64,000 nucleotides of DNA from Anaerolineales bacterium (GTDB lineage: Bacteria > Chloroflexota > Anaerolineae > Anaerolineales > UBA4823). The stretch is taken from NCBI GenBank assembly GCA_035286585.1, contig DATEDC010000195.1, positions 4,139-68,138 of the forward strand. The letters are read 5' to 3'. The notes under the pieces are model-generated. The model had not been told where the DNA came from and ran no database searches. It saw only the letters and a list, made by a program, of their open reading frames with translations. Below are positions 45,620 to 62,807 of this stretch, in pieces. The position numbers and the translations under genes are program-made. Position 1 is the first letter of the stretch. Each line of letters begins with the position of its first letter.

Positions 45620-45723
45620 TTGGAACTTTTTTTCGCTGGAAAGCGTCTTGGCATCAAAATGGAGCCGCGAATTATTTATCTCCCATCTGGTTCGCCAGAC
45701 GATTCATCTCTTGGAGGGGTGCG

Positions 45724-48126
45724 ATGATAACGAAATCGCTCAGGATTGCTTTGTTAATTGCCGTCATCATAGCTCTCTACCCCGGCCCGGCTCGGGCGGA
45801 TGGGATCATCATCCCCGAGCCGCCGGTTTGCGTGCCGCGACCCTGCCCACCGCCGCCATGCCCCGGTCCCTGGCCCTGCCCACCCATGCCGCCAATCGCC
45901 CAACTAGTTATTCGCTATCATCGCGTTACTGTAGATATCCAGGATCAAATTGCCACCACCCGGGTAGATCAGATATTTTACAACCCGAACGACTGGCAGG
46001 TGGAGGGGGTTTACATGTTCCCCATCCCCGCTGAGGCGGCTGTATCCTCATTTTCATTATGGGTGGATGGTAAGCCAGTTGAAGGCCAAATTTTGGATAA
46101 AGACGAAGCGCGAGCGAAGTACGAAGAGATTGTCACCAGCATGCAGGATCCGGCATTGCTGGAATACGCTGACCGGGGAGCTCTGCAGGCGAGCATTTTC
46201 CCCATACCGCCAGGAGGCGAACGCCGGATTGAGCTGGAGTATTCGCAGGTGCTGCCTTACGATAACGGGCTGGTTCGCTATTCCTACCCGCTCAACACAG
46301 AGAAATTTTCCCTGTGGCCAATTGAAAATGTGACCATCAGTGTGAGCATCCGCGCCAGCACCACCTCGCTGCGGGCAATCTATTCACCCAGCCACGAGGT
46401 AGCGATCAGCCGGGAGGGCAATCGTTATGCTGCCGTAGGCTATGAGGACAGAGATATTCGCCCGGATAAAGACTTTGTGCTGTTTTATTCATTGGGTGAA
46501 GAGCAGGCCTTTCACCTGGTCTCGTATAGAGAACCGGATGGGAGCGACCCGGATGGGTTTTTCCTGGCCTTGATTGCCCCTGAGCCCGACGCCCCGCTGC
46601 GTGAGATATCCAAGGACCTGATCCTGGTGCTCGACCGCTCGGGCAGCATGGAAGGCGAGAAGTTCCAACAGGCGAAGCAAGCCTTAGGGTATATCCTGGC
46701 GCACCTGAATGGGGAAGATCGCTTCAATGTGGTCGCCTTCAGTACGGGGCTGGACGCATATAGGGATCATTTGCGCCCCGCGGAGGAGGCGAATGAAGCA
46801 ATATCCTGGGTGGAGCGCATGAGCGCCCAGGGGAGTACGGATATCAACCGGGCTTTGCTCGAAGCGGTGTACATGGTGGACCGTGAACGGCCAACCTACC
46901 TGATCTTCCTTACCGATGGCCTGCCAACCGAAGGTGTTGTCGACAGCCAAAAAATCCTCGCCAACCTGGAGGGGGCTGCGCCGGCTAACCTGCGCCTGTT
47001 TGCCTTTGGGGTTGGATATGATGTGGACACCTACCTGTTGGATTCTCTGGCCCAGGCTCACCACGGAACCAGCGTGTACGTGCGCCCGGAGGAACGGCTG
47101 GATGAAATTCTGTCGAGCTTCTACGCCCGGATCAGCACCCCGGTTTTAACCAATCTGTCGCTGGATTTTGGCGAGGTCGGCGTCTACGACACATACCCTG
47201 ACCCACTGCCGGACCTGTTTGCCGGCTCACAGATTGTACTGGTAGGTCGCTACCGCCGCCCAGGAACCACAACCGTGAGGCTGACCGGAGAAGTTGGCGG
47301 CGAGGTTCGATCGTTCCATTTTGAGGCGCAAGAATTCGTCAACCAGGCCTCGTTCACCGGCGTTCAAGCGGTCATACCCAGGCTTTGGGCGACCCGGAAG
47401 ATCGGTCACCTGCTGAACCTGGTAAGGCTGCACGGACCTGACGAGGAGACAATCAATCAAATTGTAAAACTGAGCATACGCTACGGCATCATAACCCCTT
47501 ACACCTCCTACCTGGTTACAGAGGATATGCCTTTCGGCTCGGCGGAGCAGGAGCGCATCGCCCAGGAGCAATTAAGCCAGATGCAAAGCCAGCCGGCTGC
47601 GCCGGCGTTCGGTCGGGACGCGGTCGAAAAAGCGGCTGGGCAGGGCGCTCTTGCCGGGGCAGAGGCGCCGGTTGAGCCAGAAAATGAGGCTGCCGAGGTG
47701 GTCCGAATCGTGGGCGCGCGCACTTTCGTGCTCGCTGATGGGGTCTGGATCGACACAGCTTATGACCCGGAGGCGATGGGAACTGTAAAAGTTGGCTTTC
47801 TGAGCGAGGATTATTTCGCCTTGATCGCTGCGCTGCCCGACCTGGGAGCTGGCTTCGCCCTGGGACAAAGGGTGATCGCCGTGGCAGCCGGGACTGCTTA
47901 CGAGGTGGTGGATTCACAGGCTGTTAGCGGGCCGATCCACATCCCAACGGCTCAACTGCCGCAAGCGATCGAGCAATCGCCAGAGATAGAGCCGGCGAGC
48001 ACGCTGTCCCCGCAATCAAACGATCTTCCGGAAGCAGCACCCACCTCAAATTGCCTGGGGAGCCTCGGGCTTATTGTGTTGGCGCTGATCGTTCCGCTCA
48101 TTTATCGACGACGCCAGGGTACATAG
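45724..48126 (+). CDS. Secreted VIT + vWA domain protein with C-terminal membrane anchor
   Basis: Signal peptide (ARA/D), VIT (F.NP...EG.Y.FP.P), MIDAS DRSGSM...TDG, LWA.RKI, TPYTS; C-terminal TM plus RRR. Confidence 0.9.
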   Translation: MITKSLRIALLIAVIIALYPGPARADGIIIPEPPVCVPRPCPPPPCPGPWPCPPMPPIAQLVIRYHRVTVDIQDQIATTRVDQIFYNPNDWQVEGVYMFPIPAEAAVSSFSLWVDGKPVEGQILDKDEARAKYEEIVTSMQDPALLEYADRGALQASIFPIPPGGERRIELEYSQVLPYDNGLVRYSYPLNTEKFSLWPIENVTISVSIRASTTSLRAIYSPSHEVAISREGNRYAAVGYEDRDIRPDKDFVLFYSLGEEQAFHLVSYREPDGSDPDGFFLALIAPEPDAPLREISKDLILVLDRSGSMEGEKFQQAKQALGYILAHLNGEDRFNVVAFSTGLDAYRDHLRPAEEANEAISWVERMSAQGSTDINRALLEAVYMVDRERPTYLIFLTDGLPTEGVVDSQKILANLEGAAPANLRLFAFGVGYDVDTYLLDSLAQAHHGTSVYVRPEERLDEILSSFYARISTPVLTNLSLDFGEVGVYDTYPDPLPDLFAGSQIVLVGRYRRPGTTTVRLTGEVGGEVRSFHFEAQEFVNQASFTGVQAVIPRLWATRKIGHLLNLVRLHGPDEETINQIVKLSIRYGIITPYTSYLVTEDMPFGSAEQERIAQEQLSQMQSQPAAPAFGRDAVEKAAGQGALAGAEAPVEPENEAAEVVRIVGARTFVLADGVWIDTAYDPEAMGTVKVGFLSEDYFALIAALPDLGAGFALGQRVIAVAAGTAYEVVDSQAVSGPIHIPTAQLPQAIEQSPEIEPASTLSPQSNDLPEAAPTSNCLGSLGLIVLALIVPLIYRRRQGT

Positions 48127-48342
48127 GTGGCTGAGAAATTACGGAAATGTTGGGCGTCAAGCAGCCAGATTAAAACGCGAATATCGGATTTTTAGGGTAT
48201 AATTCAGGCAGCACCAGGGGAATACCGCGGACTAGCTGGCATTTATTCGAGTATCTGATTGCGCACCGAAAATAATGTAGCGACGTTGCAATCTGGGGCG
48301 CAGCTAAAGCTATCCATGAGAGATTTGGTCGAGTAACAAAGC

Positions 48343-48371
48343 TTGTAGACAATATATTTGAATGCTATAAT
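48343..48371 (+). promoter_or_regulatory. rho promoter
   Basis: TTGTAG-N17-TATAAT with TG extension. Confidence 0.7.
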
Positions 48372-48522
48372 CCAAATATTAATTTTCCCCTGATTTTATT
48401 CACCCCTTATTGATCTTTTTACTTCTTAAATGGTGTATCTGTCGCCTGCCATCCGTATGGATGGGTCTCGACAGTTCAACCTGATTGAGTTAAGCTAACC
48501 TTACCACATCGAGAATAGGAAT

Positions 48523-49800
48523 ATGAAAGTACTAGAATTAGAAAACACTCCCCTTGAAGCATTGCGCCAGAAGGCCAAAGATTTAAACGTTCACAATGCG
48601 AACCGCATGAAGAAGGAAGATTTAATCCTTCGCATCCAGCAGGCTCAAGCCGAGATGGATGGAATGGAAGTTCGCGGCGGCATTTTAGAGATTATGAGCG
48701 AGGGGATCGGATTCCTGCGCTCAAGTCACTACCAGCCAGGTCCCTATGATATTTATGTATCTCAATCGCAGATCCGCAGATACAACCTCAGAAATGGCGA
48801 CCTGATCATTGGTCATGTCCGCCCACCGCGCGAGTCGGAAAGGCATTACGGGTTGCTGCGCGTGCAGAACATCAACGGCGTGGACCCAGAAGAAGCCCGG
48901 CACAGGCCAACCTTCGAATCGCTCACCCCAATCTTCCCGGAAATGCGTTTTGATTTGGAGACAGACAGACATACTCTAGCAACACGGCTGATCAACCTGG
49001 TTACCCCCATCGGACGTGGACAGCGCGGCTTGATCGTATCGCCGCCCAAGGCAGGTAAGACGACCATTCTCAAGCAGATTGCCAACTCGATCTCGACCAA
49101 ATATCCGGAAGTGCATCTGATGGTCGCCTTAATTGGTGAGCGCCCGGAAGAGGTTACCGACATGGATCGCTCGGTAGATGCTGAGGTGATCTCCTCGACC
49201 TTCGATGAGCCGGTAACTTCTCACGTGCGCGTGGCTGAGATGGTATTGGAGCGCGCCAAACGTCTTGTAGAAGTTGGTCGCGACGTGGTCATCTTGATGG
49301 ATTCGATTACCCGCCTGGCCCGCGCCTATAACCTGGTGGTCACACCATCGGGTCGTACACTTTCCGGGGGTATCGATCCATCAGCCCTTTACCCGCCCAA
49401 GCGTTTCTTTGGAGCTGCCCGTAACATCGAAGAAGGCGGGTCACTGACCATCATCGCCACCTGTCTGGTGGATACAGGCTCGCGCATGGACGATGTAGTC
49501 TACGAGGAATTCAAGGGGACAGGCAACATGGAGCTGCACCTGTCCCGCCGTTTGCAGGAACGGCGGGTGTTCCCGGCGATCGATATCGAGCGTTCTTCCA
49601 CCCGCCGGGAAGAGCTGCTGCTTGGTCCGGACATTACGCCCCGCGTCTGGCTCATGCGCCGGATGTATGACCAGATGGTTAGCTCTCCGCCGCATGGAGC
49701 CGGTTTAGATCCGTCTACAGCCACTGAAGCTATATTGCAGCGGTTAAGCCGTACACAGGGTAATCAGGAATTCCTGGAGACGCTGACCGAAGACAATTAG
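48523..49800 (+). CDS. rho: Transcription termination factor Rho
   Basis: GFLR, DIYVS.SQI, PPKAGKT, ERPEEVTD, DSITRLARAYN, EEFKGTGNME. Confidence 0.98.
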   Translation: MKVLELENTPLEALRQKAKDLNVHNANRMKKEDLILRIQQAQAEMDGMEVRGGILEIMSEGIGFLRSSHYQPGPYDIYVSQSQIRRYNLRNGDLIIGHVRPPRESERHYGLLRVQNINGVDPEEARHRPTFESLTPIFPEMRFDLETDRHTLATRLINLVTPIGRGQRGLIVSPPKAGKTTILKQIANSISTKYPEVHLMVALIGERPEEVTDMDRSVDAEVISSTFDEPVTSHVRVAEMVLERAKRLVEVGRDVVILMDSITRLARAYNLVVTPSGRTLSGGIDPSALYPPKRFFGAARNIEEGGSLTIIATCLVDTGSRMDDVVYEEFKGTGNMELHLSRRLQERRVFPAIDIERSSTRREELLLGPDITPRVWLMRRMYDQMVSSPPHGAGLDPSTATEAILQRLSRTQGNQEFLETLTEDN

Positions 49801-49814
49801 CCCCGGACCCCGGA

Positions 49815-50918
49815 TTGTCTGAAGATCATTTAGACCTCACCCCGCAGCCGAGCAAATCCAGCGGGATTGTCCCTATCATCGCCTGGTTTGGCGCGTTGAC
49901 CCTGGTCGCTGCGGCAGTCTACCTGGGCTGGCGCAGGAGCAGCCCGGGCGTTCCAGAGACGGCTATTGAACCGGCTGTTGCCCAGGCAGCTTTGGGGTCG
50001 GAAGCGATGGGTGAGACCGTCGAGTCTCTGCCTGAGACCACCTTTGCTGAAGGCAGCCTGGCAGTCTCTCGCAAAGCGATGGTGCATACCATCATACCTG
50101 ACAGGCCAAGCGAGGAGGTGCGGAATTATGTCGTTGTCACAGGGGATTCGGTTTTCGAGATCGCAAAAAACTTCAATATCAAGCCCGAGACCCTGCTGTG
50201 GGCAAATTACGATCTGCTGAATGATAACCCGGATACCATCTCCATCAGCATGGAACTCAAAGTGCCGCCTGTTGATGGGGTGTATTATCTCGCCCAGGAG
50301 GGGGACACCCTGGAAAGCATCGCCGTCCGCTTCGAAGCCAAGGTCGAGGATATTCTCAACTGGTCGGCTAATCAACTGGACCTGACCCAGCCAGAGATCC
50401 AACCTGGCACCTGGCTGATGGTCCCCGGGGGGCACCGCGAGTTTCGACAGTGGATCATCCCTGTAATCCCCCGCGGTAGCGCAGGCGTTTCAAAGTCTGT
50501 TTATGGCGCTGGCGCGTGCGAAGGCAGTTACGACGGCGCGTATGGCACCGGCGCGTTTATCTGGCCGGCTGGCAACCACTATCTCTCCGGGAATGATTAT
50601 TGGGGCGGGCACCTGGGCATCGATATCGCCGCCGGAGAAGGGGCTGCGGTATACGCTGCGGACAGCGGGGTGGTCGTATTCGCCGGCTGGGCAACAGGAG
50701 GTTATGGCTACACGGTCATGATCGATCATGGCAATGGTTATCAGACTTTATATGCCCATATGAGCAGCCTGCGCGCTTCTTGTGGGCAAAGCGTTGGGCA
50801 GGGAGGAGTAATCGGTTATGCGGGCAGCACCGGCGATTCAACCGGAGCTCACCTGCATTTCGAGGTGCGCTATTTTGGCGGCTTTGTCAGCCCATGGTAC
50901 GTACTTCCCGCGCCTTAA
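49815..50918 (+). CDS. LysM + peptidase M23 cell-wall endopeptidase
   Basis: N-terminal TM, two LysM, HLGID, YAHM, STGAHLHFE. Confidence 0.92.
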   Translation: MSEDHLDLTPQPSKSSGIVPIIAWFGALTLVAAAVYLGWRRSSPGVPETAIEPAVAQAALGSEAMGETVESLPETTFAEGSLAVSRKAMVHTIIPDRPSEEVRNYVVVTGDSVFEIAKNFNIKPETLLWANYDLLNDNPDTISISMELKVPPVDGVYYLAQEGDTLESIAVRFEAKVEDILNWSANQLDLTQPEIQPGTWLMVPGGHREFRQWIIPVIPRGSAGVSKSVYGAGACEGSYDGAYGTGAFIWPAGNHYLSGNDYWGGHLGIDIAAGEGAAVYAADSGVVVFAGWATGGYGYTVMIDHGNGYQTLYAHMSSLRASCGQSVGQGGVIGYAGSTGDSTGAHLHFEVRYFGGFVSPWYVLPAP

Positions 50919-50999
50919 AGGCTGCGCCAACCAAGGTATTAGCGCCCGACCGGCAACCTGCCGCTACGTTCGTGAAACCTTCTAAGTGAGGCGATTAAG

Positions 51000-51188
51000 A
51001 TGGCAAAATACGACCCTGAACTTGATACTGATATCATCGCGGAGACTGAAAACTACCTGGCCTGGCAAGCGGAGGAGCCAGATGGAGAAGTCACCTTCCA
51101 CCTGGAATTAAATAACGTCACCATCCATTTTTTCCGGGAGGAATGGGAGGAATTCTTGAAGCTGGTCCGGGCGATCCCTCAATCATGA
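51000..51188 (+). CDS. Small acidic hypothetical protein (62 aa)
   Basis: GAGG SD, ATG start, protein-like composition (IAETENY..W...DGE.TFHLEL..VT.HF..EEW). Confidence 0.7.
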   Translation: MAKYDPELDTDIIAETENYLAWQAEEPDGEVTFHLELNNVTIHFFREEWEEFLKLVRAIPQS

Positions 51189-51229
51189 TATCGATCGGTT
51201 AGTGCGAGCCAGCTTATCCTCAGGAGCGG

Positions 51230-52846
51230 TCAGGGCGCTATTTTTTCCACGTAGGGTATTACCCCCTGGCATGGGATGGTGAACTGCGAGCGCACCTCGT
51301 CCCAGAGCAAGCGCCTACCGTTGGCATTCCAGGCCTGATGGACCGCGTAGGACAAGCAACCCGGGCCGGCGTGGTAGTTCGCAATTGTCAGGCGCCACAG
51401 GTCCTGGTAATTGCTCACCGTCCCGGCGATTTTTCCCGTTGCATTATAAACAATCTGCGCTACCTGCTCGCAGTTCGCCAGCAATGTATTTGCAAACAAT
51501 GACACACTGAAATCCACGTTCGTCAGGTCTATCCCTTGCTGGCAGGCCGGGCAATCGGCTCTGGCTTGAGCGGCGAGCGCCCCGCGCAGCATGGCCTGTT
51601 CCTCAGGTTTCAAGTTTAGGTAGCCGCGTTTGCAGGTATCCTGGGCAAGGATAAGCGGGCATAACTGGTTGTAAAAGGAGGGGTCCCACTGCAGGATTGT
51701 ATCCGCGCCGTTGTCCGTGATTTGACCCAGGCCAAACTCATTTGGTACCCGGAACATGCCTGGCCAAAACTGGGATTCCTGGGCGAACAGGTTTTTCATC
51801 AAGGTTGCCGGGACACCGCTCTCCTTGGCGATTGCGATAATCCGGCTGTCGAACTGGTTTTGCCAGGTTTCCAACGCAGGCCTGGCAGTTTCTAAGCCAC
51901 ATGCATCGGCGTAGCCATTGGGTTGCAGTCCGCCGGTGGGGCAGGCGGAGGCGTTAACAACACCCTGGGCAATTAAGCGCCCAGCGAGATAATAATAGGG
52001 CTGGTTCGAGGAGAGCAAATTAGAGTGATCGGGGGTCGAAAGCCAGCCTGTCAACCCTCCAACGGGAGGGAACGCCCGCCAGGTCTGAGAACAACTGGCC
52101 AGCCGGGCGCCGCGCCACTGGCTGCTCAAGACATCCACATACCAGCCCGAGCCGCGCGGCACCGGCGATACCCCGCTTTCTATCACCCGCACCTGAGCTT
52201 TGAATGTGCGGCTTACATCACCATAGCTGGATTTAGCCACAAATTCTACTTCAACCCCCTCCGTCGACGTCACCCGTAATGGAATGGCGCAGGTGGATCC
52301 CTCACAGGCGAAGGGCTGGTTATTATACAGTCCCTCTATCGCAGTGATCTGCTCATTGGGCAGTGGCTCCTCGCCCGTCAGGAGCAATTTCGGTAATTTC
52401 TCGCAGCGATTCTGCGGGGGGACGGGCTCGCAGCCATCCAGACTGACCCAAACCTGGAGAGGCGGGAGGGTCACCAGCATCTCCTTTGTTTTGGGCGAGG
52501 AGGTGACCAGGTGTAAATATAACCCTTCACACGAACCGGTCTTCAAATTTCCTTTGAGAAGATTTTTGCAAGGGGGTGTAGCCAGCCATTGGGCTTGCAG
52601 GTCTGCACCGCAAGCCTTATACACCTCCGTGCTGGTGGGCAGCCCCTCATGATCGCTGAGGATTTGGCAGAGAATCATGTTGTCCGTCCAGCTCAGCAGC
52701 CACCACTGGTATTCGGTATAAGAAACAATGATCTTCGTTTGGCGAGTGGATGTTTGAGCGGGGGCGCGTTCATAGATCACCGCTGTCATGCCGATGAAAG
52801 CAAGTAAGAAACACGCGGCTTTAAAAATTCTTCGCGGCCCCTTCAT
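51230..52846 (-). CDS. Secreted Cys-rich protein with a C-terminal lytic transglycosylase-like domain
   Basis: Signal peptide; FAQESQF, GLGQIT, ANYHAGPG resemble SLT motifs; 19 Cys. Confidence 0.7.
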   Translation of the reverse strand: MKGPRRIFKAACFLLAFIGMTAVIYERAPAQTSTRQTKIIVSYTEYQWWLLSWTDNMILCQILSDHEGLPTSTEVYKACGADLQAQWLATPPCKNLLKGNLKTGSCEGLYLHLVTSSPKTKEMLVTLPPLQVWVSLDGCEPVPPQNRCEKLPKLLLTGEEPLPNEQITAIEGLYNNQPFACEGSTCAIPLRVTSTEGVEVEFVAKSSYGDVSRTFKAQVRVIESGVSPVPRGSGWYVDVLSSQWRGARLASCSQTWRAFPPVGGLTGWLSTPDHSNLLSSNQPYYYLAGRLIAQGVVNASACPTGGLQPNGYADACGLETARPALETWQNQFDSRIIAIAKESGVPATLMKNLFAQESQFWPGMFRVPNEFGLGQITDNGADTILQWDPSFYNQLCPLILAQDTCKRGYLNLKPEEQAMLRGALAAQARADCPACQQGIDLTNVDFSVSLFANTLLANCEQVAQIVYNATGKIAGTVSNYQDLWRLTIANYHAGPGCLSYAVHQAWNANGRRLLWDEVRSQFTIPCQGVIPYVEKIAP

Positions 52847-52928
52847 CTACTAAGAAAAATAACATGAGATGATATGCTTGTCAACACGCAAATCAGGCGC
52901 GCTTATCAAAAATGAACGTTATCCTCAC

Positions 52929-52957
52929 TTGCACAGGCTTAAGGCCCATGATACACT
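52929..52957 (+). promoter_or_regulatory. Sigma70-type promoter, leaderless for ORF 52964
   Basis: TTGCAC-N17-TACACT with TG extension, then ctaaaa-ATG; no SD. Confidence 0.75.
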
Positions 52958-52963
52958 CTAAAA

Positions 52964-54160
52964 ATGGCAGAATATTTGTTCCCCTGGCTGTCGGATGTCG
53001 ACCGCGCCGCCCAATACCTGGCCAGTCTATCACTGTCCACAGCCGCGCAGGCAGCCATGCTCATCCGGGCCGAACGGCTCTGGGCTTATGCTGGCGAACT
53101 CTCGCAACCTGCAATCGAGGAACTGCTCAAGGCTGTCCTCAGGAAGAACCCGGCTGCAGGCGAAAAGGATATTACCCAGGGCTTGGATATTGCCCAGGGC
53201 AAAGACTATGCCCAGTTTGTAGCCTTAGAGTCTAGCGGCAGCGAATACCTGCTTTATAGCACTCGATTAGATGAAGGCATGCTGCTGGCGCTGGCCTTTG
53301 ATATCGAAGTACCTTTCAGCAAAATCAGATTGCAGGCTAACCGCCTGGCGAACGCGCTTAAGGCGCCGCCTGGCACGGTCTCGCTCGACCAGGATGACTT
53401 GCAGCAAGATGAAGACCGCTCCCAACTCGGGTTGCAACCATTATTCCCTCTCGAAGAACTCCCCCCGCCTACTCCTGCTCTGGCCTCCAGGCCGAGAAAT
53501 GGAGAGGAGGGCTATACCAACTGGCAGCATGAGACAGAGAGCGACCCATCACGTTCTGAAGACGATTTGCCCGGTTCTATGAAGGTTGGCGGGTTTGGGG
53601 CTCGGGAGCAGGAGACCTCGTGGGGATTCCATAACCCATCTGCGGTGCCGTCTGGTAGAGATCTGTCTTCAAACTTCACCGCATTGGAAGAAGGTCCGTT
53701 GCCGGAGGAGCGACAGCCCCTCGATGGGGAAACGAATCTCGGGCTGCCCAAATACAAAGCCGTACAGCCGCAACTGGACATCGGTTATACATTTCTGCTT
53801 GTGCCGCGCATGCCCGCTCATCGCCTGTTGGGGGAGCTGGCTATTGCCCTGGAAGAGGATATGCGTCAGCTATCGATGGCATTCGGATGGCGGTTAGAGC
53901 GCATGGTGATCCAAACGGAAACCCTGCAGTGGGGAGCCAGGGTAACCCCGAGCACCTCCCCCAGCCGCCTGGTCCGCCTGATCCGCAAGCATACTTCGCA
54001 AAGGTTGTTTGCCCGCTTTCCGCAACTCGAACGCGATAACCCTTCCGGTGACTTTTGGGCGCCGGGTTATCTGGTGATGAGCAGCACCCGGCCTTTGCCG
54101 GCTCAGGTAGTCAAATCTTTTGTCCAGCAGACACGTTTAAATCAAGGAGCGTCTGCTTGA
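52964..54160 (+). CDS. Roadblock/LC7-like domain + acidic linker + catalytically dead IS200/IS605 TnpA (Y1)-like domain
   Basis: C-terminus Y.F.LVPR...LLGE...PS.SPSRLV..I...TS.RL..RFPQL...GDFWAPGYLV.S...VVKSFV matches the TnpA layout with HUH read as TLQ and Tyr as Phe; N-terminus LLY.....MLLALAFD..VPFSKIRLQA.RL. Confidence 0.75.
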   Translation: MAEYLFPWLSDVDRAAQYLASLSLSTAAQAAMLIRAERLWAYAGELSQPAIEELLKAVLRKNPAAGEKDITQGLDIAQGKDYAQFVALESSGSEYLLYSTRLDEGMLLALAFDIEVPFSKIRLQANRLANALKAPPGTVSLDQDDLQQDEDRSQLGLQPLFPLEELPPPTPALASRPRNGEEGYTNWQHETESDPSRSEDDLPGSMKVGGFGAREQETSWGFHNPSAVPSGRDLSSNFTALEEGPLPEERQPLDGETNLGLPKYKAVQPQLDIGYTFLLVPRMPAHRLLGELAIALEEDMRQLSMAFGWRLERMVIQTETLQWGARVTPSTSPSRLVRLIRKHTSQRLFARFPQLERDNPSGDFWAPGYLVMSSTRPLPAQVVKSFVQQTRLNQGASA

Positions 54161-54177
54161 GCGTTTATTGGTGAGAA

Positions 54178-56979
54178 ATGCCGCCTACGTTGTATTTAAT
54201 TGACGGTCATGCCCTGGCATACCGCGCCTATTTTGCATTGTTACGCGCTTCGACGAGCGGCTTCGCCACCAGCAAAGGCGAGCCCACGGCGGGAATATTT
54301 GGCTTTACCAGCGTTTTGCTGCGCATCCTGGAGCAGGAACGTCCGGATTATCTGGCGGTCGCCTTTGATACCGGAAAAACATTCAGGGATGACCTGTATC
54401 CTGAATATAAAGGCACGCGAGCGAAGATGCCCGATGACCTGCGAGCGCAGATCGAGCGCATCCGCCAGCTTGTAGACGCGTTCAACATCCCGCGCCTGGA
54501 AGTCGAAGGCTACGAAGCTGATGATGTATTGGGAAGTGTGGCGAAGTGGGCGGTAGGCCAGGGCCTGGGGGTGAAGATTATAACGGGCGACCGGGATCTG
54601 CTCCAACTGGTGGAGGAACGCATCATCGTCAACCTGCCAGGCAAATCGCTTTCCGAGGCGCGCGACTACCTGCCCGAGCATGTGCAGGAATATCTCGGCG
54701 TGCGCCCCGATCAGGTGGTCGACTATAAAGCCCTGGTAGGCGATAAGTCTGATAATATCCCAGGTGTGGCAGGGATTGGTGAAAAAACAGCCGCCTCGCT
54801 CCTGCAATCGTATGGTAATCTCGACGAAATTTACGCCCATCTGGATGATTTATCAAAAGGCGTGCGCGAAAAGCTCGCAACGGGACGAGAGGATGCTTAC
54901 CTGAGCCAGCAGCTATCCAAAATTGTCACTAATCTCTCGATACCCCTGGATCTTGAGCAGGCTCGCCCACACGATTTCGATCCCGGGCGCATTGAAGCCC
55001 TCTTCAGGGAATTGGAATTCCGCACCTTGTTGGGCCGGCTGAGCAGCCTGATGCAGTCCTTTGGGTTATCCCAAGCTCAGGCAGGTCGCCAGTTGGGCTT
55101 ATTCCAGGAACCTGCGCCGCAGGTTATACAGCCAGCGCCGCCCTCTTCAGAGAGATTGAGCGCGCAGGTGGTCGATACGCCCGAATCGTTGCAGGCATTG
55201 GTAAGCCGCCTGGAGCAGGCGCAGGTGATCGCCTTCGATACCGAGACCACCTCCACGGACCAAATGCTGGCTGATCTGGTGGGAATCGCCCTGGCCGTGG
55301 ATGGTGACAGCAGCTATTACATTCCAGTGGGTCACCGCAGAGAACTGGGCCAACAGCTGCCGCTGGAGACCGTCATCGAAGCCCTGCGTAAACCACTGAC
55401 AGATGCGAAGATACCTAAAGCGGGGCATAACTTGAAATACGATTTCATCCTGCTGGCCCGGAATGGGTTGAGGGTAACCCCGCTCTCGTTCGATTCGATG
55501 ATCGCCGAGTGGTTGATAAACCCGGCTTCGCGCAACCTGGGCTTGAAGAACCTGGCGTGGATCCGCTTGAATTTCAAGATGACAGACATCGAAGATCTGA
55601 TCGGGAAGGGCAGAAATCAAATCAGCATGGCCGAGGTAGCGATCGATCGGGCGGTCTCTTACGCGGGAGCGGACGTGAAGGCGGTGCTCCGCCTGATGCC
55701 GGTGCTGCAGGGCGAGCTGGAAAAATGCCAGGAGACCAAATTATTCTATGAATTGGAAATGCCCCTGGTCGAAATTCTGGCAGATATGGAGATGAACGGC
55801 ATAGTCCTGGACACGCAGTTCCTGGCCACCATGTCTGCCCAACTGCAAGCTCGCCTGGACCAGATCGAGGATCAGATCCACCGGGTGTCTGGCGATACGT
55901 TTAACATCAATTCACCGCAACAGCTCTCCGAGGTCCTTTTTAAGCGGTTGGGGATCCAGCCTCCTGACCGAACCCAGAAGACCGCCAGCGGGTTTTATTC
56001 CACATCAGCGGAGGTGCTGGAAGCGTTGAGCGGAAAACATCCCATGGTGGACTGGGTTTTAGAATATCGAGAACTCTCGAAATTAAAATCCACCTATCTC
56101 GATGCTCTGCCATTGCAGGTGAATCCTGCGACCGGGCGAGTGCACACCTCGTACAACCAGACCGGGTCGGTCACTGGAAGGATCGCCTCCTCGAATCCAA
56201 ACCTGCAAAATATCCCCATCAGAACCGAGCTGGGCAAACAGGTCCGCCAGGGGTTCGTGGCAGCCCCCGGACTGAGTTTACTCTCGGTGGATTATTCGCA
56301 GATCGAGCTGCGCATCGTCGCCCACATCTCGGGGGACGAAGCCATGCTGGCTGCGTTCCGAGCCGGACAGGACATCCACGCGGCTACAGCCGCAAGGATA
56401 CTTGGCATCCCGATAGAATCAATCACCCCGGATCAGCGCCGGCACGCCAAGGCGATTAACTTCGGGTTGATCTACGGGATGAGCGCTTATGGATTGACTC
56501 GTACAACCGACCTGACCCTGGCGGAAGCGGAGGATTTCGTCGAGTCGTATTTTCACCAGTTTCCCGGCGTCAAGCGCTACCTGGACTCGATGCGCCGCCA
56601 GGCCGTGGAGCGCGAGTATGTGGAGACTTTATTGGGTCGCAGGCGTTACTTTCCAGGCCTGAAGAATCAAAGCAACCGCAATATTCGCAATCGCGAAGAA
56701 CGCGAGGCAATCAATGCCCCCATCCAGGGCGCGGCTGCGGATATCATCAAAATCGCCATGCTGCGGGTACCCGCTGCCCTGGCAGAAGCGGGTTTGTCAG
56801 CGCGCATGCTGCTGCAGGTCCATGACGAGCTGGTCCTGGAGTGCCCAGAGGAGGAATTGAATGCCACGGCTCGCTGGGTTCGGGAGGTGATGGAATCAGC
56901 CTACCAATTGAAGATACCCTTGCTGACGGAAGCGCGCAGCGGCCTGAACTGGGGAGAAATGGTGCCGGTGGCTGATTAA
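54178..56979 (+). CDS. polA: DNA polymerase I (5'-3' nuclease, intact 3'-5' exonuclease, polymerase)
   Basis: LIDGH, YEADD, GD.SDNIPGV.GIG.KTA, FDTET, TGRIASS.PNLQNIP, DYSQIELR, KAINFGLIYG, QVHDELV. Confidence 0.99.
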   Translation: MPPTLYLIDGHALAYRAYFALLRASTSGFATSKGEPTAGIFGFTSVLLRILEQERPDYLAVAFDTGKTFRDDLYPEYKGTRAKMPDDLRAQIERIRQLVDAFNIPRLEVEGYEADDVLGSVAKWAVGQGLGVKIITGDRDLLQLVEERIIVNLPGKSLSEARDYLPEHVQEYLGVRPDQVVDYKALVGDKSDNIPGVAGIGEKTAASLLQSYGNLDEIYAHLDDLSKGVREKLATGREDAYLSQQLSKIVTNLSIPLDLEQARPHDFDPGRIEALFRELEFRTLLGRLSSLMQSFGLSQAQAGRQLGLFQEPAPQVIQPAPPSSERLSAQVVDTPESLQALVSRLEQAQVIAFDTETTSTDQMLADLVGIALAVDGDSSYYIPVGHRRELGQQLPLETVIEALRKPLTDAKIPKAGHNLKYDFILLARNGLRVTPLSFDSMIAEWLINPASRNLGLKNLAWIRLNFKMTDIEDLIGKGRNQISMAEVAIDRAVSYAGADVKAVLRLMPVLQGELEKCQETKLFYELEMPLVEILADMEMNGIVLDTQFLATMSAQLQARLDQIEDQIHRVSGDTFNINSPQQLSEVLFKRLGIQPPDRTQKTASGFYSTSAEVLEALSGKHPMVDWVLEYRELSKLKSTYLDALPLQVNPATGRVHTSYNQTGSVTGRIASSNPNLQNIPIRTELGKQVRQGFVAAPGLSLLSVDYSQIELRIVAHISGDEAMLAAFRAGQDIHAATAARILGIPIESITPDQRRHAKAINFGLIYGMSAYGLTRTTDLTLAEAEDFVESYFHQFPGVKRYLDSMRRQAVEREYVETLLGRRRYFPGLKNQSNRNIRNREEREAINAPIQGAAADIIKIAMLRVPAALAEAGLSARMLLQVHDELVLECPEEELNATARWVREVMESAYQLKIPLLTEARSGLNWGEMVPVAD

Positions 56980-57042
56980 GCTATCGAACGCGATACTGGC
57001 GTTGTGCTCCTTTTTCAAATGGGATAGTTTGCAGGAGTTGTT

Positions 57043-59370
57043 ATGAGTGGGACAGAAGAAATATTCCAGCGGGTAATGGATCAGGGTCATTCTGCCGCAT
57101 GGGATCAAAAATGGGACCAGGCGGCTGGCTATTACAGCCAGGCGTTAGAAATGTATCCGAATAATATTTCTGCGTTAACCAGCCTGGGGCTGGCTCTATA
57201 TGAACTCCACAGGCTCGAGGATGCGTTGCGCTGTTACATCCAGGCTGCCAAACTGACCCCCAACGACCCGCTGCCGCTGGAAAAGATAGCCCATATTTAT
57301 CGCCAAATGGGAAATAGTAAGTTTGCTCAGGCTGCGGCCACGCGCGCGGCCGAGATTTTCTTAAAAAATCATGAGGTCAACAAGGCCTTAGAAAACTGGC
57401 AATTCATCGCCCAACTCAATCCGGGATATCTCCCGGCGCATACCCGGTTGGCGTACATCTATGAACGGCTCGGACGCAAAGAGGATGCGGCTGGCGAATA
57501 CCTGGCGCTGGCAAGCCTTCTGCAAAAGGCGAACGATGTCGATCGGGCGGTACAGGCAGCCAACCGCGCAGCGCAAATTAACCCCGGAAGCGCTGATGTC
57601 CTGGATGCACTTGCAGCGCTCAGAGAATTCCAACCTGTGCCGATGCCTGACAGGTACGCTAAGAGCCAGACCAGCACGCAGTCTGCCACGACTCCTGGGT
57701 CGGCTGTATCAGCGCAGGTTGAATCTACTGCCGAGGAGCTGGACCCGATATCCGCAGCGCGGCAAAAATCTCTGGCAGTGCTGGCTAGCGTCCTGTTCGA
57801 TGCCGTTGAGGAGGCGGAGGAAGTGGGCGTGGAACGTTCTGGATTCCGCTCGATCATGCGCGGGACAGGGAAGCTGATGAGCGCCAACGTGGATCGCTCG
57901 CGAATCGTGCTGCATGTCAGCCAGGTAATCGAACTGCAGACGCAGGGGGAAGTATCTCAAGCAGCCGAGGAGCTTGAACGGGCGGTTCAATCGGGCCTGG
58001 AAACTGCGGCGGCATATTTTGATTTAGGGTTATTAAAATATCTCGGTGGCGATCTAGAAGAGGCGAAACGTTATATGAAATCCGCGCTGCAGAGCCCTGA
58101 GTTTGCCTTGGGGGCGCGATTGGTCATGGGGCAGATGCTGCAAAAATCGGGGAAACACAAAGAAGCCGCGCTTGAATATTTGGAAGCTTTGCGTTTAGCC
58201 GAGATCGATGTGCTGCCTAAGGATCAGGCGAAAGAATTGGATCAACGATACGACCCACTGATCGAGTCGCAAAGGCTGGAGCCGGATCCCCGGGTGCACG
58301 AGCGAGTGTGTGAAAATATTTCTGGCCTGCTCATCCAGCCCGGCTGGCAGAAGAGGCTCAGCCAGGCGCGTAAAGAGATGGCGCAACAAGGGGAGGAGAG
58401 TCGAGTCGTGCCGCTGGCGGAGCTGATCATCCAGTCAGGAAGCAGCCAGATTGTAGAAGCAGTGAGTCGAATAACCGCTCTCGAGAGGGCTGGTCTTTGG
58501 CGGTCTGCGATGGAAGAAGCTTATTTTGCGCTGGATTTTGCGCCTACGTACCTGCCCTTGCATTTGCAGATGGCAGGGTTATTGCTGAGCCAGGGACAGA
58601 CGCAGGAAGCTATCGAGAAGCTGCTCGTGGTAGCCGAGGCGCATCAGACGCGCGGCGAAGCGAAGCGGGCGATCGAGATCTACCGCCAGGTGATCGAATT
58701 GGCGCCGTTGGAGCTTGCACCGCGCAATTTACTGATTCAACAATTGATCCGTCTCGGCCAGATTGAAGAGGCTGTCCAGGAATATGTTCATCTGGCGGAG
58801 GTGTACTACAACCTGGCAAACCTGGAAAAGGCACGCAGTACGTATGTTGAAGCCTTTAAACTTGCGCAGCAAGCCAATACGGATCCGTCACTGCGCGCCG
58901 GCATCCTACACCACATAGCGGATATCGATCTGCAAAGCCTGGATTGGCGCCAGGCGATTCAGGTCTTTGAACAAATACGCACCTTGCTGCCCGATGATGA
59001 AAAGGCACGTTCCAGCCTGGTGGAGATAAACGTACGCCTTGGGCAAGAGCAAAAAGCCATGGTGGAGATCGATAACTACATAGCTTACTTGTTGAAATCG
59101 GGGTTCAAGGGCAGGGCAGTCAGTTTTTTGGAGAATCTGAGGCGGGAATATCCTGAGCGATTGGCAATCCGTCACCGCCTGGCTTCCTTCTATAAACGCG
59201 AGGGCAGGAAAACCGAAGCGATTACCGAATTGGATGCCATCGGGGAAATGCTGGTCGAAGCGGGCAAAATTGCTGACGCGGCTCGAATCATCGAAGAGAT
59301 CCTGGCGTTGGGACCGCCGAACGTGGGAGATTATCGTGCATTGTTAGATCAGCTAAAACGGGGGAGTTGA
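57043..59370 (+). CDS. Large tetratricopeptide-repeat protein
   Basis: Many TPR-like units (A..YY.QAL...P.N..A...LG..L); SD AGGAG. Confidence 0.88.
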   Translation: MSGTEEIFQRVMDQGHSAAWDQKWDQAAGYYSQALEMYPNNISALTSLGLALYELHRLEDALRCYIQAAKLTPNDPLPLEKIAHIYRQMGNSKFAQAAATRAAEIFLKNHEVNKALENWQFIAQLNPGYLPAHTRLAYIYERLGRKEDAAGEYLALASLLQKANDVDRAVQAANRAAQINPGSADVLDALAALREFQPVPMPDRYAKSQTSTQSATTPGSAVSAQVESTAEELDPISAARQKSLAVLASVLFDAVEEAEEVGVERSGFRSIMRGTGKLMSANVDRSRIVLHVSQVIELQTQGEVSQAAEELERAVQSGLETAAAYFDLGLLKYLGGDLEEAKRYMKSALQSPEFALGARLVMGQMLQKSGKHKEAALEYLEALRLAEIDVLPKDQAKELDQRYDPLIESQRLEPDPRVHERVCENISGLLIQPGWQKRLSQARKEMAQQGEESRVVPLAELIIQSGSSQIVEAVSRITALERAGLWRSAMEEAYFALDFAPTYLPLHLQMAGLLLSQGQTQEAIEKLLVVAEAHQTRGEAKRAIEIYRQVIELAPLELAPRNLLIQQLIRLGQIEEAVQEYVHLAEVYYNLANLEKARSTYVEAFKLAQQANTDPSLRAGILHHIADIDLQSLDWRQAIQVFEQIRTLLPDDEKARSSLVEINVRLGQEQKAMVEIDNYIAYLLKSGFKGRAVSFLENLRREYPERLAIRHRLASFYKREGRKTEAITELDAIGEMLVEAGKIADAARIIEEILALGPPNVGDYRALLDQLKRGS

Positions 59371-59391
59371 GCTAATCAGCTTATCCTAGAA

Positions 59392-60375
59392 TTAATACCA
59401 CAGGCGGAAGGAAGTCACCGCCTGCGTCTGGAAGCCCTCATACGTGATTGTGGCAACTATCTCTACCTGACCAACGGGTTTATTGTCAAACGAAAAAGTG
59501 TGGCTGACGATGCCCTTAGCGTTTGTCACCTGATTTACAAGTATTTGTGCTTTGTCCTTGGACGGCCAGGTAATCGATAGGGAGACTTCTGCACCGGAGA
59601 GAGGCATCAGTTTTTGATCCTGCAAGGTGATATAGATGGTTTGTGATCCGCTTTGGGGTAAAACTGCGTGCTGGACGAAGGCGCGCGCCTGGATGCCCAG
59701 GGTCATCTGCACCATCGGATTCGTTCGCGTTGGGGGAGGTTCGGGTTCCAGTCGGCTTGGATCTTCACCGATGAAGTGGAAGTAACGGCGGCCAAGGTCT
59801 GTAAGGGTGACCCGTCTGCCTGGAGGCAGCTCAGCATGCCATTCAAAACGAGCGCGTTGGAAGTATTGGACGATTAATCTATCCCGAATTTCAAAGTTTG
59901 AGATCGGGTAGCCGAACAGGGCAGCGCCGCCGTTGGCTTCGAAAAAATCCAGGAAGGCGTAACAGATTTTCTTGCCGCTTTCCACAAATTCTCGGCAGGC
60001 GGGCAGGTTTGCCGAAGGCTTCAGCTCGGGCCCCGGGGTGTACATCAATTCACCGAGCAAGGAGATTTTGACCCGAAAATCGGCGGGATTGTCGGGGATA
60101 AGCTCGAACCGGGCGCGCTCGAAATATTGAACGTATCGCCCGCCAACTGGTTCCAGGTAGGCTTCCGTAATTGGGTTGCCGAAGATCATGGCTGGATCTG
60201 GCACGCTATCGTAGGTGGCGAGAAATTCCCCAATAACCCAATGACCTTTTGCGGGGAAGTACCTTTGATCGCTCGCCGGTTGATACGGACTCTGCGCTAC
60301 TGATGGTATCCAGCCCTGGCCCACGACAACGATCACGGCAATCAATGCGAGATACCGGTGGACCTTCATTTGCAC
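59392..60375 (-). CDS. Secreted protein with two Chloroflexota-type YFP..GH/FG.PI..QYF.RARFE repeats and a C-terminal Ig-like domain
   Basis: FGNPITE...QYFERARFE and FGYPISN...QYFQRARFE; signal peptide; GTG 60375 (or ATG 60369) start 6 nt after TATAAT. Confidence 0.8.
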   Translation of the reverse strand: MQMKVHRYLALIAVIVVVGQGWIPSVAQSPYQPASDQRYFPAKGHWVIGEFLATYDSVPDPAMIFGNPITEAYLEPVGGRYVQYFERARFELIPDNPADFRVKISLLGELMYTPGPELKPSANLPACREFVESGKKICYAFLDFFEANGGAALFGYPISNFEIRDRLIVQYFQRARFEWHAELPPGRRVTLTDLGRRYFHFIGEDPSRLEPEPPPTRTNPMVQMTLGIQARAFVQHAVLPQSGSQTIYITLQDQKLMPLSGAEVSLSITWPSKDKAQILVNQVTNAKGIVSHTFSFDNKPVGQVEIVATITYEGFQTQAVTSFRLWY

Positions 60376-60639
60376 AAGATGATTATATGCAAAAACGCGA
60401 TTAAATACAATAGCCTGTGCAGGAAAAAACCGTCCCACAGCGATTAAAACTATAACCAATTTCCGTGTGGATGCCCATCTGTTCAGCCGACCTGATCGGC
60501 GTTTCTGCAAACGGATTTGTACGCTCGCAGGTCTTAGATTTCGCTGTGCCGAATCTTAACGCTCCCCACCCTCCTTGTAGTAGAATAGGTTGGTGGTGCA
60601 GACAAATTTCTGTGTCGAGTCCACTGGAATGACGAGTGC

Positions 60640-60993
60640 ATGAAGCCCATCCGTTTTATCGAGGAACAAATAGAAGTAATGTTTCCAACGCCGCCTCTCC
60701 TGGAGAAGAAACCGGGCTGTCCGGATGGTTTTGCATGGCGAGGCGAGGTGTTTCGCATTACGGAACTGCTCGAAGAATGGCACGATTATGCCCGTCGCGG
60801 GCGGGCGAGTCGCAATATGCGCGAGGCTCACGCCGTCGCCGCGGAACGACGCGGCTCCTGGGGGGTGGGTAAAGATTATTTCCGGGTCTGCACAGACGCT
60901 CAGAGGGTCTTTGACCTGTACTTTGATCGCGCCCCTAAAGGCGTCGAGCACAGAAAGGGCGCCTGGTTTTTATTCCAGGAGCTGGAGTCCTAA
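60640..60993 (+). CDS. DUF6504-like protein
   Basis: P..F.WRG..F.I..LLEEW...YFRV...FDLY.D...WFL pattern. Confidence 0.7.
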   Translation: MKPIRFIEEQIEVMFPTPPLLEKKPGCPDGFAWRGEVFRITELLEEWHDYARRGRASRNMREAHAVAAERRGSWGVGKDYFRVCTDAQRVFDLYFDRAPKGVEHRKGAWFLFQELES

Positions 60994-61028
60994 ATTCGAA
61001 CTGGCGAGTGTTACTCGGCTGCCATGCC

Positions 61029-62807
61029 ATGACAATCGAAATTATACTACTCCTGGTTATTCTAGGCATAACCCTGGTATTTTTCACTTTTGAATGGCTG
61101 TCGGTGGATATCGTCGCCCTGGGTGTGTTGCTTTCGCTGGTGCTACTCGGTCTTGTACCGCTGGAGCGAGCATTTGACAGTTTTGGCAGCGATACGGTGG
61201 TACTCATCCTGGGACTGCTGATCCTCACTGCGTCTCTGGTGCGCACCGGGGTGGTGGAGATTACCGGTCGTTATTTGTTGAAAAGAGTGACCGCCAATCC
61301 GAATCGGCTGCTGTGGATGGTGATGGGAGCTGGGGCAGGGATGAGCGCTTTCATGAGCAACACGGCTGCGGCGGCATTTTTCGTGCCTACTGTGATCGGG
61401 CTGGCGAATCGTTTGAAAATCAACGCCTCGCGCTTGCTCATGCCACTGGCATTTGCGGCGATTCTTGCCAGCTCGGTGACATTCGTAAGCACATCGACGA
61501 ACATCGTTGTCAGCGGCGTGATGACTCAATATGGCATGCCCCCAATGAGGATGTTCGAGCTGACCCGGGTTGGTTTGCCGATAGTGGTGGTCGGTTTGTT
61601 ATACATGGCTTCGATCGGCCAGCGGTTGATGCCTCAACGCGCCAGTCAGGAAGACCTGACGGTTGAGTTTGATCTGCCCTCGTATCTTACCGAAATATCA
61701 ATTATGGAGTCCTCGCCTTTAGCAGGGAAGACGCTAGCCGAATCCGGATTAGGACACGACCTGGACATCACCGTCTTGCGGATCGTGCGGGATGAAGACA
61801 AGCTTCTGGCGCCGCGGGCGGACGAGACACTGGAAAAAGGGGATGTGCTCCTGGTAGAGGCAAATCGGGATGAAATTATCAAAATAAAGGACTCAGTCGG
61901 TATAGGCATCGCTTCCGAAACCCCGCACTACGATCCAGATTTGCAAGCCGAGGACGTGCAGTTGGCCGAAGTCATCCTGTTGCCACGCTCGCCATTCATC
62001 GGACGCCGGCCGCGAGGGTTAGATTTGAGGGAACGATTTGGTTTACAGGTGCTGGCGATCAACCGCCAGGAACAGACCATCCACCGCAAGATCAGCCAGG
62101 TGCCGCTGAGGATGGGCGACGTCCTCCTGGTCCAAGGCCCACGAACGAACATTTCATTACTGGAGAGAAATAATGCCTTTCGGGTGTTGGGCATGCTAGA
62201 AGACGTAACCCCAGACTATTCCCGAGCGCGACTGGCAGTGGGGATATTTATTGGGGCGTTGCTTTTGGCAACTTTTAACATCCTAACGCTGCCGGTTGCT
62301 ATTCTGGCGGGTGTGGTGATATCCTTCCTGACCAAATGCATCACCCCAGAAGAGGCCTATCGCGAGGTGGAGTGGAAAGCGATTATTCTCATCGGCAGCA
62401 TGTTGGCGTTTGGGAGCGCCATGGAATATACTGGCGCGGCCCAATTCCTTGCCAGGCAGATTGTCCTGCTCCTGGGGGATGGGAACCCCATCTGGCTCTT
62501 GTCTGCGTTCTTTATCCTGACCGTGCTCTTGACACAACCGATGTCGAATCAGGCGGCTGCTGTGGTGGTGCTGCCGGTGGCAATCCAGGCTGCCTTACAG
62601 CTTGGCCTCAATCCAAGAACCTTCGCAATGATGATTGCCGTAGCGGCGAGCACATCGTATATCACACCGCTGGAGCCCGCATGCCTGATCGTCTACAGCT
62701 TAGGTCATTATAAATTTTTGGATTTCATAAAGGTTGGGTCCCTGTTGACGATTGTGGTCTACATCATCGCAATACTGCTTGTCCCACTCATCTGGCCTAT
62801 ATCCTGA
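61029..62807 (+). CDS. SLC13/CitMHS-family permease with two TrkA-C (RCK_C) domains
   Basis: SAFMSNT, LLMPLAFA, STSTN, two SPL.G...L..GD.LLV units, MSNQAAA, AASTSY.TP. Confidence 0.92.
   Translation: MTIEIILLLVILGITLVFFTFEWLSVDIVALGVLLSLVLLGLVPLERAFDSFGSDTVVLILGLLILTASLVRTGVVEITGRYLLKRVTANPNRLLWMVMGAGAGMSAFMSNTAAAAFFVPTVIGLANRLKINASRLLMPLAFAAILASSVTFVSTSTNIVVSGVMTQYGMPPMRMFELTRVGLPIVVVGLLYMASIGQRLMPQRASQEDLTVEFDLPSYLTEISIMESSPLAGKTLAESGLGHDLDITVLRIVRDEDKLLAPRADETLEKGDVLLVEANRDEIIKIKDSVGIGIASETPHYDPDLQAEDVQLAEVILLPRSPFIGRRPRGLDLRERFGLQVLAINRQEQTIHRKISQVPLRMGDVLLVQGPRTNISLLERNNAFRVLGMLEDVTPDYSRARLAVGIFIGALLLATFNILTLPVAILAGVVISFLTKCITPEEAYREVEWKAIILIGSMLAFGSAMEYTGAAQFLARQIVLLLGDGNPIWLLSAFFILTVLLTQPMSNQAAAVVVLPVAIQAALQLGLNPRTFAMMIAVAASTSYITPLEPACLIVYSLGHYKFLDFIKVGSLLTIVVYIIAILLVPLIWPIS

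Follow-up and report, generated by a model that had tools for sequence, protein, structure and literature searches.

The DNA analysed here is a stretch of 64,000 nucleotides (nt) from an Anaerolineales bacterium (contig DATEDC010000195.1, assembly GCA_035286585.1); the whole stretch is called the window, and all positions are its own unless a locus is named. It contains a gene (52964..54160, + strand) for a protein of 398 amino acids (aa), which is composed of a Roadblock domain, an acidic Pro-rich linker and a Y1 domain of the IS200/IS605 transposase (TnpA) type with replaced catalytic residues, and which does not have the receiver domain found in most relatives. The open reading frame (ORF) list and the translation showed an intact frame free of stops, as had been proposed in an initial annotation made from the sequence alone. 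The gene start given there, 52929, was incorrect, as frame 1 is rich in stops from that position and the ORF begins at 52964; the closest seven relatives listed beyond the protein's own cluster (P0003-P0009) share this start position. Position 52929 is the first base of a promoter-like site (52929..52957, +) that consists of the -35 box TTGCAC (52929-34), a 17-nt spacer and TG-n-TACACT (52949-57), the last of which ends 6 nt ahead of the ATG. A sigma-70 consensus scan did not list this site (score 7/12), which is one of five genome-wide matches to the promoter pattern. A TTG-N17-TGATA(C/A)ACT arrangement recurs upstream of many relatives, and TAnnnT showed a peak 6-10 nt 5' of the start (79 hits across 107 family loci, no shuffle control). 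Judging from these upstream regions, a conserved promoter is credible, with a start that is likely leaderless; the initial annotation had described this promoter as strong.

A polA-like gene for a 933-aa protein (54178..56979, +; identity read from sequence) follows 17 nt downstream. The AlphaFold model of the fusion protein (mean predicted local distance difference test score, pLDDT, 76.8) contained two confident domains and a disordered linker. Its predicted template modelling score of 0.46 gave no sign of fixed packing between the domains, and 38 of the top 100 coupled pairs were inter-domain versus 52 expected (shallow alignment, effective depth 186).

The two domains of the fusion protein

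The C-terminal domain (aa 272-396; 53777..54151, +) has the fold of IS200/IS605 TnpA. PF01797 matched aa 274-389 (E 3.4e-9, 37 bits versus a cut-off of 23), Foldseek retrieved ISDra2 TnpA (E 1.7e-9), and VIA comparison with 2ec2 gave Z 16.1 and a root-mean-square deviation (rmsd) of 2.0 over 108 aligned residues; NF033573 matched with 45 bits, under its cut-off of 55. The TnpA-consensus peptide motifs quoted in the initial annotation were all present in the translation. The replacement of catalytic residues noted there was observed as well: the relic of the HUH (His-hydrophobic-His) motif reads T320-L321-Q322 (53921..53929, +), and in the relic of the Y-x-x-x-Q motif (54119..54133, +) the catalytic Tyr and the metal-ligand Gln are replaced by F386 and T390, respectively.

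This loss is a property of the whole family. The combination of two His and Tyr was found in none of the 121 closest proteins and in none of 425 family Y1 domains (those of at least 100 aa, near-duplicates included), whereas within the same order, 14 of 19 stand-alone Y1 proteins had all four catalytic residues. Among the 425 domains, both His occurred in 7, Tyr in 159 and Gln in 7, and neither Tyr nor Gln was ever found together with both His. Orthologues therefore consistently lack the catalytic set, and they occupy one fixed locus, with polA located 3' of the gene in 76/77 assessable loci (of 80 loci, three stop within 426 nt, and there is a single genuine exception). Sequences were under purifying selection: the median dN/dS of the Y1 domain was 0.071 (27 disjoint pairs drawn from 210 with dS between 0.1 and 1; the highest value, 0.75, came from distant pairs), well below 1, compared with 0.081 for Roadblock and 0.28 for the linker, and comparison of the gene with its same-genus relative gave 0.21/1.56 (dN/dS).

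The gene is also single-copy, as the family profiles detected no second ORF in this genome. Within the class, the Y1 profile had matches at E 1e-18 in 15 of 251 genomes, one per genome except in G142. The second copy in G142 (L151:4615-5199) is a stand-alone dead Y1 protein away from polA. A similar protein (L152:4605-5345), also away from polA, is the only trace of the family in G039, which has neither the Roadblock part nor the MglA-like GTPase discussed below. No tnpB was detected among ORFs of at least 80 aa in 44000-64000. Folding of the DNA at three places gave no stable hairpin (z -0.32, 0.10 and 1.20), and 52700-54400 contained no repeat family, repeat array or hairpin, hence no repetitive extragenic palindromic (REP) sequences. 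A relic hairpin of an insertion sequence (IS) end was considered and rejected, since the conserved downstream hairpin is limited to one subclade and is terminator-like. Thus, the central proposal of the initial annotation, a domesticated and dead TnpA fused to a Roadblock domain and devoid of tnpB and IS-end hairpins, held up on both folds, the missing catalytic set, the single locus and the purifying selection, and we are nearly certain that this is a real, conserved, catalytically dead TnpA domain within a host protein.

A search for shorter homologues yielded 86 fragments of the family, and an active TnpA was not among them. A feature search of the ESM Atlas yielded only Y1 clusters, all scoring below 0.9; these included Y1-like clusters of 110-123 aa in Planctomycetota and Gemmatimonadota (0.86-0.89).

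The N-terminal domain (aa 6-136; 52979..53371, +) belongs to the MglB class of Roadblock/LC7 domains. The initial annotation had described the first ~135 aa as Roadblock-like and had expected matches to Y1_Tnp (PF01797) and Robl_LC7 (PF03259). The first profile matched and the Roadblock fold was found; a Pfam scan of this domain returned no match, and PF03259 itself did not match. A library match to MglB was weak (E 0.001), and a 46-sequence family profile matched MglB of Myxococcus and Thermus with E 5e-10 to 7e-8. Structural comparison identified MglB 1j3w by Foldseek (E 1.6e-5) and, by VIA, the Roadblock/LC7 protein 3leq (Z 13.1, rmsd 2.4, 100 aligned) and MglB 6hjm (Z 11.5). The model has a five-stranded sheet between alpha2 and alpha1/alpha3, which is the fold of the Roadblock/LC7 superfamily. 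Helix alpha2 ends in a lineage-specific insert (approximately aa 64-79; 53153..53202, +; pLDDT 57-66), which contains an imperfect 18-nt tandem duplication (53167-53202) and corresponds to a gap in 118 of 121 aligned sequences.

The two domains are joined, as previously noted, by an acidic Pro-rich linker (aa 137-269; 53372..53770, +) with 19% Asp/Glu and 12% Pro, which is largely disordered by composition and pLDDT (mostly <50). Linker length ranged from 9 to 491 aa (median 134) across 354 fused members, 204 of which contained a semi-conserved hydrophobic-acidic-PxP motif that is located here near aa 161-170. Only ~9 linker residues separate Roadblock and Y1 in two long-branch sequences, L213:1102-2439 and L234:1724-3022.

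Distribution, history and known relatives

A protein search identified 1932 relatives among 7993 candidates scored, and named relatives were annotated as Anaerolineales or Chloroflexota "transposase", "response regulator" or "RayT". In GTDB contigs, at least 567 of at least 607 pattern matches were confirmed, and 80 loci were kept. The titles of these loci name Chloroflexota taxa in all cases except one metagenome; one of the taxa named is, we presume, a member of Chloroflexota. Among 477 distinct sequences, many of whose short representatives are contig fragments, 296 had the receiver-Roadblock-Y1 layout, 45 Roadblock-Y1, 38 receiver-Roadblock, 91 Y1 only and 7 Roadblock only.

The receiver domain is atypical. 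In 293 fused members, the Asp was kept in 92% and the Lys in 80%, and the acidic pocket and Ser/Thr were mostly lost: the first acidic residue was Thr in 77% and Asp in 5%, and the Ser/Thr switch position was Pro in 43%. The protein in the window has no receiver, and, given also the state of the acidic pocket and Ser/Thr in its relatives, the features of a canonical response regulator were not found. No orphan receiver of the family type was detected in the genome, which is 82% complete. A split receiver gene was rejected, as the best receiver match in the genome (E 7.5e-15) was far from the family median (2e-37), and no clear upstream remnant was present (best tblastn E 0.01). By sequence comparison, the receiver was probably lost in this copy and separately in other lineages. 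Signalling control in this organism would then rest on the Roadblock domain, because the copy has no receiver.

Two further variants were observed. Members of family f43 (L140, L143 and L153-L157) are 600-990 aa long; a second acidic linker joins their receiver to the Roadblock domain, and their Y1 domain has diverged strongly and is often acidic. The same-genus orthologue (L005 and L160 in G001) is split by an N-gap and over two distant positions of a single scaffold, probably an assembly artefact.

In other Anaerolineae families, a receiver-Roadblock form of 255-340 aa without Y1 occurs, often ahead of polA. A polA gene was located within 500 nt in 109/124 assessable fused loci and in 16/24 loci without Y1 (after correction of two motif misses). 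Since Y1-less loci are also located before polA, this adjacency predates the TnpA domain and, for the same reason, is weak evidence for the role of the dead domain. Trees, whose root was assumed from the stand-alone proteins, agree with such an order of events. In a quick Roadblock tree of 70 rows, which did not include the window's own protein, all 39 Y1-fused rows fell on one side of a branch (Shimodaira-Hasegawa-like approximate likelihood ratio test 99) with four Y1-less rows nested among them, and the other side held the remaining Y1-less forms and stand-alone MglBs. In the Y1 domain, one branch split 39 dead domains from 19 stand-alone TnpAs (100/96); a second tree, with 23 rows of the first dropped and nine added, split 31 from 13 (99/99). 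The nearest stand-alone relatives are intact IS200/IS605 TnpAs, one of which is followed by a tnpB-like ORF (L266-L268). Several deep members keep Tyr and some both Tyr and Gln, but none HUH, which fits a stepwise loss of catalysis. The simplest reading of these sequences is that one TnpA was captured by an older Anaerolineae receiver-Roadblock gene and that at least three TnpA losses followed.

By the features tested, the protein is not a member of the IS200/IS605 transposases or RAYTs, nor, by gene position and profile score, of the MglB GTPase-activating proteins (GAPs). Fold and sequence of its Y1 domain are those of IS200/IS605 TnpA (ISDra2 2xm3/2xma, IS608 2vhg, Sulfolobus 2ec2/2f4f), the comparison class being subclass 1.1 of Quentin et al. 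(PMC6006769). It shares with these proteins a dimer-interface Pro, a basic residue, an invariant Trp and a basic helix. Unlike them, this Y1 domain lacks HUH, Tyr and Gln, is fused via a long acidic linker to the C-terminal side of a Roadblock domain, and is encoded in single copy at a fixed locus without IS ends or tnpB. With RAYT/TnpA-REP (4er8; Z 8.8, rmsd 3.0, 108 aligned) it shares a host-retained, low-copy Y1 domain. However, RAYTs have an intact HUH motif and Tyr and cleave at REPs, E. coli TnpA-REP is monomeric (PMC3479197), and the RAYT signature is Y-x-x-x-NP (PMC6006769), whereas the family is dead, has neither HUH and Tyr nor Y-x-x-x-NP, is closer to IS200 TnpA and shows no flanking repeat array at the window locus; the distinction from RAYTs drawn in the initial annotation was therefore correct.

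MglB and MglC, components of the MglA polarity module of Myxococcus and Thermus, resemble the N-terminal domain in the Roadblock fold, the profile match and a near-invariant R115 equivalent, and this genome also holds an MglA-like GTPase and two stand-alone Roadblock genes. The family differs from MglB in a shortened or disrupted alpha2, a gene position that is not beside mglA, and the fusion to a TnpA fold. RomR consists of a receiver, a Pro-rich linker and an acidic C-terminal part, and is not known to have a Roadblock or TnpA domain. The receiver and the acidic Pro-rich linker of the family, and its tie to Roadblock proteins, are reminiscent of RomR (PMC10329633; set beside it by description only). 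TldR, a nuclease-dead TnpB repressor, is likewise a dead IS200/IS605 protein recruited by the host (PMC10705468), but it is TnpB-derived and RNA-guided, whereas the present family is TnpA-derived and fused to signalling-type domains.

In the known cases of IS200/IS605 domestication, the recruited protein is TnpB or IscB, or a TnpA that stays active (RAYT). Here, the TnpA fold was kept without its chemistry as part of a signalling-type host protein, and the history is traceable from Y1-less forms at the locus through deep HUH-less, Tyr-keeping members to the loss of Tyr and Gln. Labels such as transposase or RayT among the 1932 relatives inflate mobile-element counts in Anaerolineae. Our literature search, which did not reach subscription journals and bioRxiv supplements, found no account of a Roadblock-TnpA family. 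For their tree, Quentin et al. excluded proteins of exceptional length and retained only sequences that have both HUH and Tyr (PMC6006769), and the accessible parts of a review of recruited mobile-element genes (PMC8987985) and of a Chloroflexi paper with a Y1 neighbour (PMC8756737) do not describe the family.

Possible roles of the fusion protein

The leading explanation, to which we assign a probability of roughly 45%, is a dimeric, non-cutting adaptor for DNA structures that is tied to the MglA/Roadblock network. The TnpA-derived interface would provide dimerisation, the retained basic helix would bind branched or hairpin DNA non-catalytically, and the four-helix face of the Roadblock domain would dock partners of an MglA-like GTPase network rather than exert GAP activity on MglA. 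Trees support a single TnpA capture, at the 3' end of a pre-existing receiver-Roadblock gene upstream of polA, followed by repeated receiver losses, one of them in this copy, and at least three TnpA losses. The 125-residue domain is easily tested in vitro.

The dimer interface of IS608 TnpA includes P73, K18 and T115 (PMC3479197). By spacing, these residues appear to correspond to P329 (kept in 400/425 domains), R282 (406/425) and position 373 (Ser/Thr in 157, Gly in 222). In TnpA-REP, one helix enters the DNA hairpin, and our residue-level DNA mapping rests on that paper (PMC3479197); bioRxiv 2024.12.22.630000 offered no residue map suitable for this purpose. Judging by the distance from the HUH position, aa 337-351 would be the equivalent helix, with R338, R341, K342, T344, S345 and R347 (53975..54004, +). 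Arg or Lys was kept at 341 in 394 and at 347 in 361 of the 425 domains, T344 in 367, S345 in 410 and W365 in all 425; the net charge of the helix is +5 here versus 0 to +5 in the 19 stand-alone TnpAs. IS608 TnpA also binds DNA forks as well as four-way junctions, and the beta clamp DnaN is among its interaction partners (PMC5027513).

Several observations argue against DNA binding. Arg at 284, present in 17/19 stand-alone TnpAs, is replaced in the family, and at 342, where 16/19 of them have Gly, family members mostly have Gln, Arg, Lys or Glu. In 9/16 deep-branching members, residue 341 is Met or Ile, and the net charge of some family Y1 domains is as low as -14; because of these two features, DNA binding cannot be general to the family. 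R341 also co-varies with D363 (rank 2, shallow alignment), which could reflect an internal salt bridge and not a DNA contact. Net charge itself was rejected as a test of DNA binding, as dead domains had a median of +2 and the nearest intact TnpA 0. The sequence evidence on retained hairpin or single-stranded DNA binding, proposed in the initial annotation, is thus mixed: such binding is plausible in the main clade, including the window protein, and doubtful in the deep branches.

On the Roadblock side, MglB contacts MglA through helix alpha2 (A64/G68; PMC3199381) and MglC through K14/R115/K120, the KRK patch (PMC10329633). Alpha2 columns 59-63, around G68, were gapped in 283-295 of 354 fused members (alignment by eye), and the window's copy has a Pro and the insert at the shortened site. 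In a profile alignment read by eye, R14, R122 and R127 align with K14, R115 and K120, so that Arg occupies all three patch positions here; the R115 equivalent (R122) was Arg in 346/354 fused and 21/21 Y1-less members. The genome contains one MglA-like GTPase (C135), encoded within a PATAN operon of a different contig and not beside the window gene, and two stand-alone Roadblock proteins (C158 and C67); NF052242 (MglB) gave 17-19 bits versus a cut-off of 200. The GTPase was detected in 123/151 genomes of the order and group-1 MglA in 29/151. By a hand count, the family was present in ~85/123 genomes with the GTPase versus 6/28 without it (~91 genomes with a fused or receiver-Roadblock member, 8/28 assigned from family tallies; kin genomes are not independent). 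In f16, the same 2/15 genomes hold both family and GTPase, and in f17 0/3. Group-1 MglA was rejected as a partner by its distribution, being present in 0/15 genomes of f15, where the fused family occurs in 15/15.

These links also have weaknesses. Stand-alone MglBs in MglA operons are also bulky at the G68 position, so that only the alpha2 deletion argues against GAP activity. Co-occurrence may represent shared gene loss among kin. Approximately 38/123 MglA-positive genomes show no family member, and there were at least three losses of the TnpA domain and several of the receiver; the GTPase link is therefore not obligate. Even so, the family provides a first candidate partner for this highly conserved MglA-like GTPase module, for which the literature searches we ran found no characterisation. 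The GTPase (L146 = G000:C135:1-5299; L263-L265) is 74-89% identical across the order. In three relatives it comes after a PATAN/DUF4388 gene, and in two of these three, as well as in the present genome, it is followed by hydrolase, hexapeptide and receiver-GGDEF genes, in L263 also by a V4R gene. A PATAN-type gene before MglA was noted for groups 1 and 5 (PMC4316618).

A narrower version, in which the captured TnpA domain anchors a Ras-like MglA/Roadblock switch on DNA at replication forks or hairpins, is in our judgement rather unlikely. If true, a component of transposon origin would connect chromosome replication in Anaerolineae with polarity or division under GTPase control.

Next to the DNA-structure adaptor, we rank a pure scaffold, which the odds do not favour but which is closer than any other competitor. 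The dead TnpA would then only mediate dimerisation or protein contacts within the MglA/Roadblock/PATAN signalling network, with no involvement of nucleic acid. The loss of the basic helix residue in 9/16 deep members, the acidic f43 domains and the GTPase co-occurrence are in its favour, as are family-specific invariant surface motifs (N359-P360-x-x-D363 and R391/Q394), a polA adjacency older than the TnpA capture (16/24 receiver-Roadblock loci) and a separate receiver-MglB fusion beside group-1 mglA. The strong selection under which the main clade keeps R338/R341/T344/S345/R347 and W365 speaks against it, as does the failure of net charge to part dead from active domains. The separate fusion (L243:1627-2583 and L218:2187-3155) adjoins group-1 mglA and clusters with the stand-alone MglBs, outside the polA-linked family.

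Third, and unlikely, is an accessory of replication or repair, in which the dead TnpA targets the lagging strand or the beta clamp and works with DNA polymerase I independently of a GTPase. The proximity of polA (76/77 assessable loci; within 500 nt in 109/124 fused loci; 17 nt here) and the binding of IS608 TnpA to DnaN and forks (PMC5027513) would suit this role. However, the Y1-less, ancestor-like form was already before polA, genomes without the gene are viable (44/151 lack a Roadblock-profile match), and in many loci a terminator-like hairpin and SOS-box-like sites part the gene from polA. By one pattern, such a hairpin with a T-run was found in 29/96 loci. In one subclade (L039-L118), the spacers contain the hairpin GCGCAGAG-TATAAT-CTCTGCGC and a T-run, often after GAAC-N4-GTTC-like sites, which we take to be SOS-box-like, and with palindromic repeat insertions. 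This could possibly be a terminator overlapping a damage-inducible polA promoter.

The TATAAT-bearing hairpin between gene and polA in this subclade, together with the receiver-plus-output layout of 296/477 sequences, might also suggest an RNA-binding or transcriptional regulator, similar to a response regulator, in which the TnpA-derived part acts as output and recognises a hairpin of RNA or DNA, for example that before polA. This is very improbable, since the hairpin is absent at the window locus and in deep branches, and the receiver is atypical and missing in the window's copy. We give equally little credence to a transposon silencer, in which transposition would be blocked by the dead subunit, either as a heterodimer with active IS200/IS605 TnpA or through its occupancy of IS ends. 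Dimer determinants are kept and PF01797 matches occur in 48/61 genomes of the order (family members included), but this 82%-complete genome yielded no intact IS200 TnpA, its other PF01797 matches being just two weak ones. The silencer reading also leaves the receiver and Roadblock parts unexplained, and the family evolves slowly, unlike a conflict gene. Finally, a decaying IS fused by chance, or a mobile transposase as the names of relatives ("transposase", "IS200/IS605 family transposase" or "RayT") would have it, is refuted by a dN/dS of 0.07, one locus in one clade, the absence of the catalytic set in 425/425 domains, GC content and third-codon-position GC (GC3) resembling those of neighbouring genes, and the lack of IS-end hairpins.

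Neighbouring genes

Downstream of polA, a gene for a 775-aa TPR protein (57043..59370, +) is a conserved neighbour, its protein cluster being represented in 60/80 loci. This protein is also present in a distant family and is a candidate partner; its identification as SgmX was rejected by score (42 bits versus a cut-off of 1800). Upstream, a divergent SLT-like gene (51230-52846, -; E 6e-4, below the cut-off) is also the neighbour in several relatives. Further upstream, where 49815-50918 (+) was noted, are a LysM/M23 peptidase gene and a rho-like gene (read from sequence).

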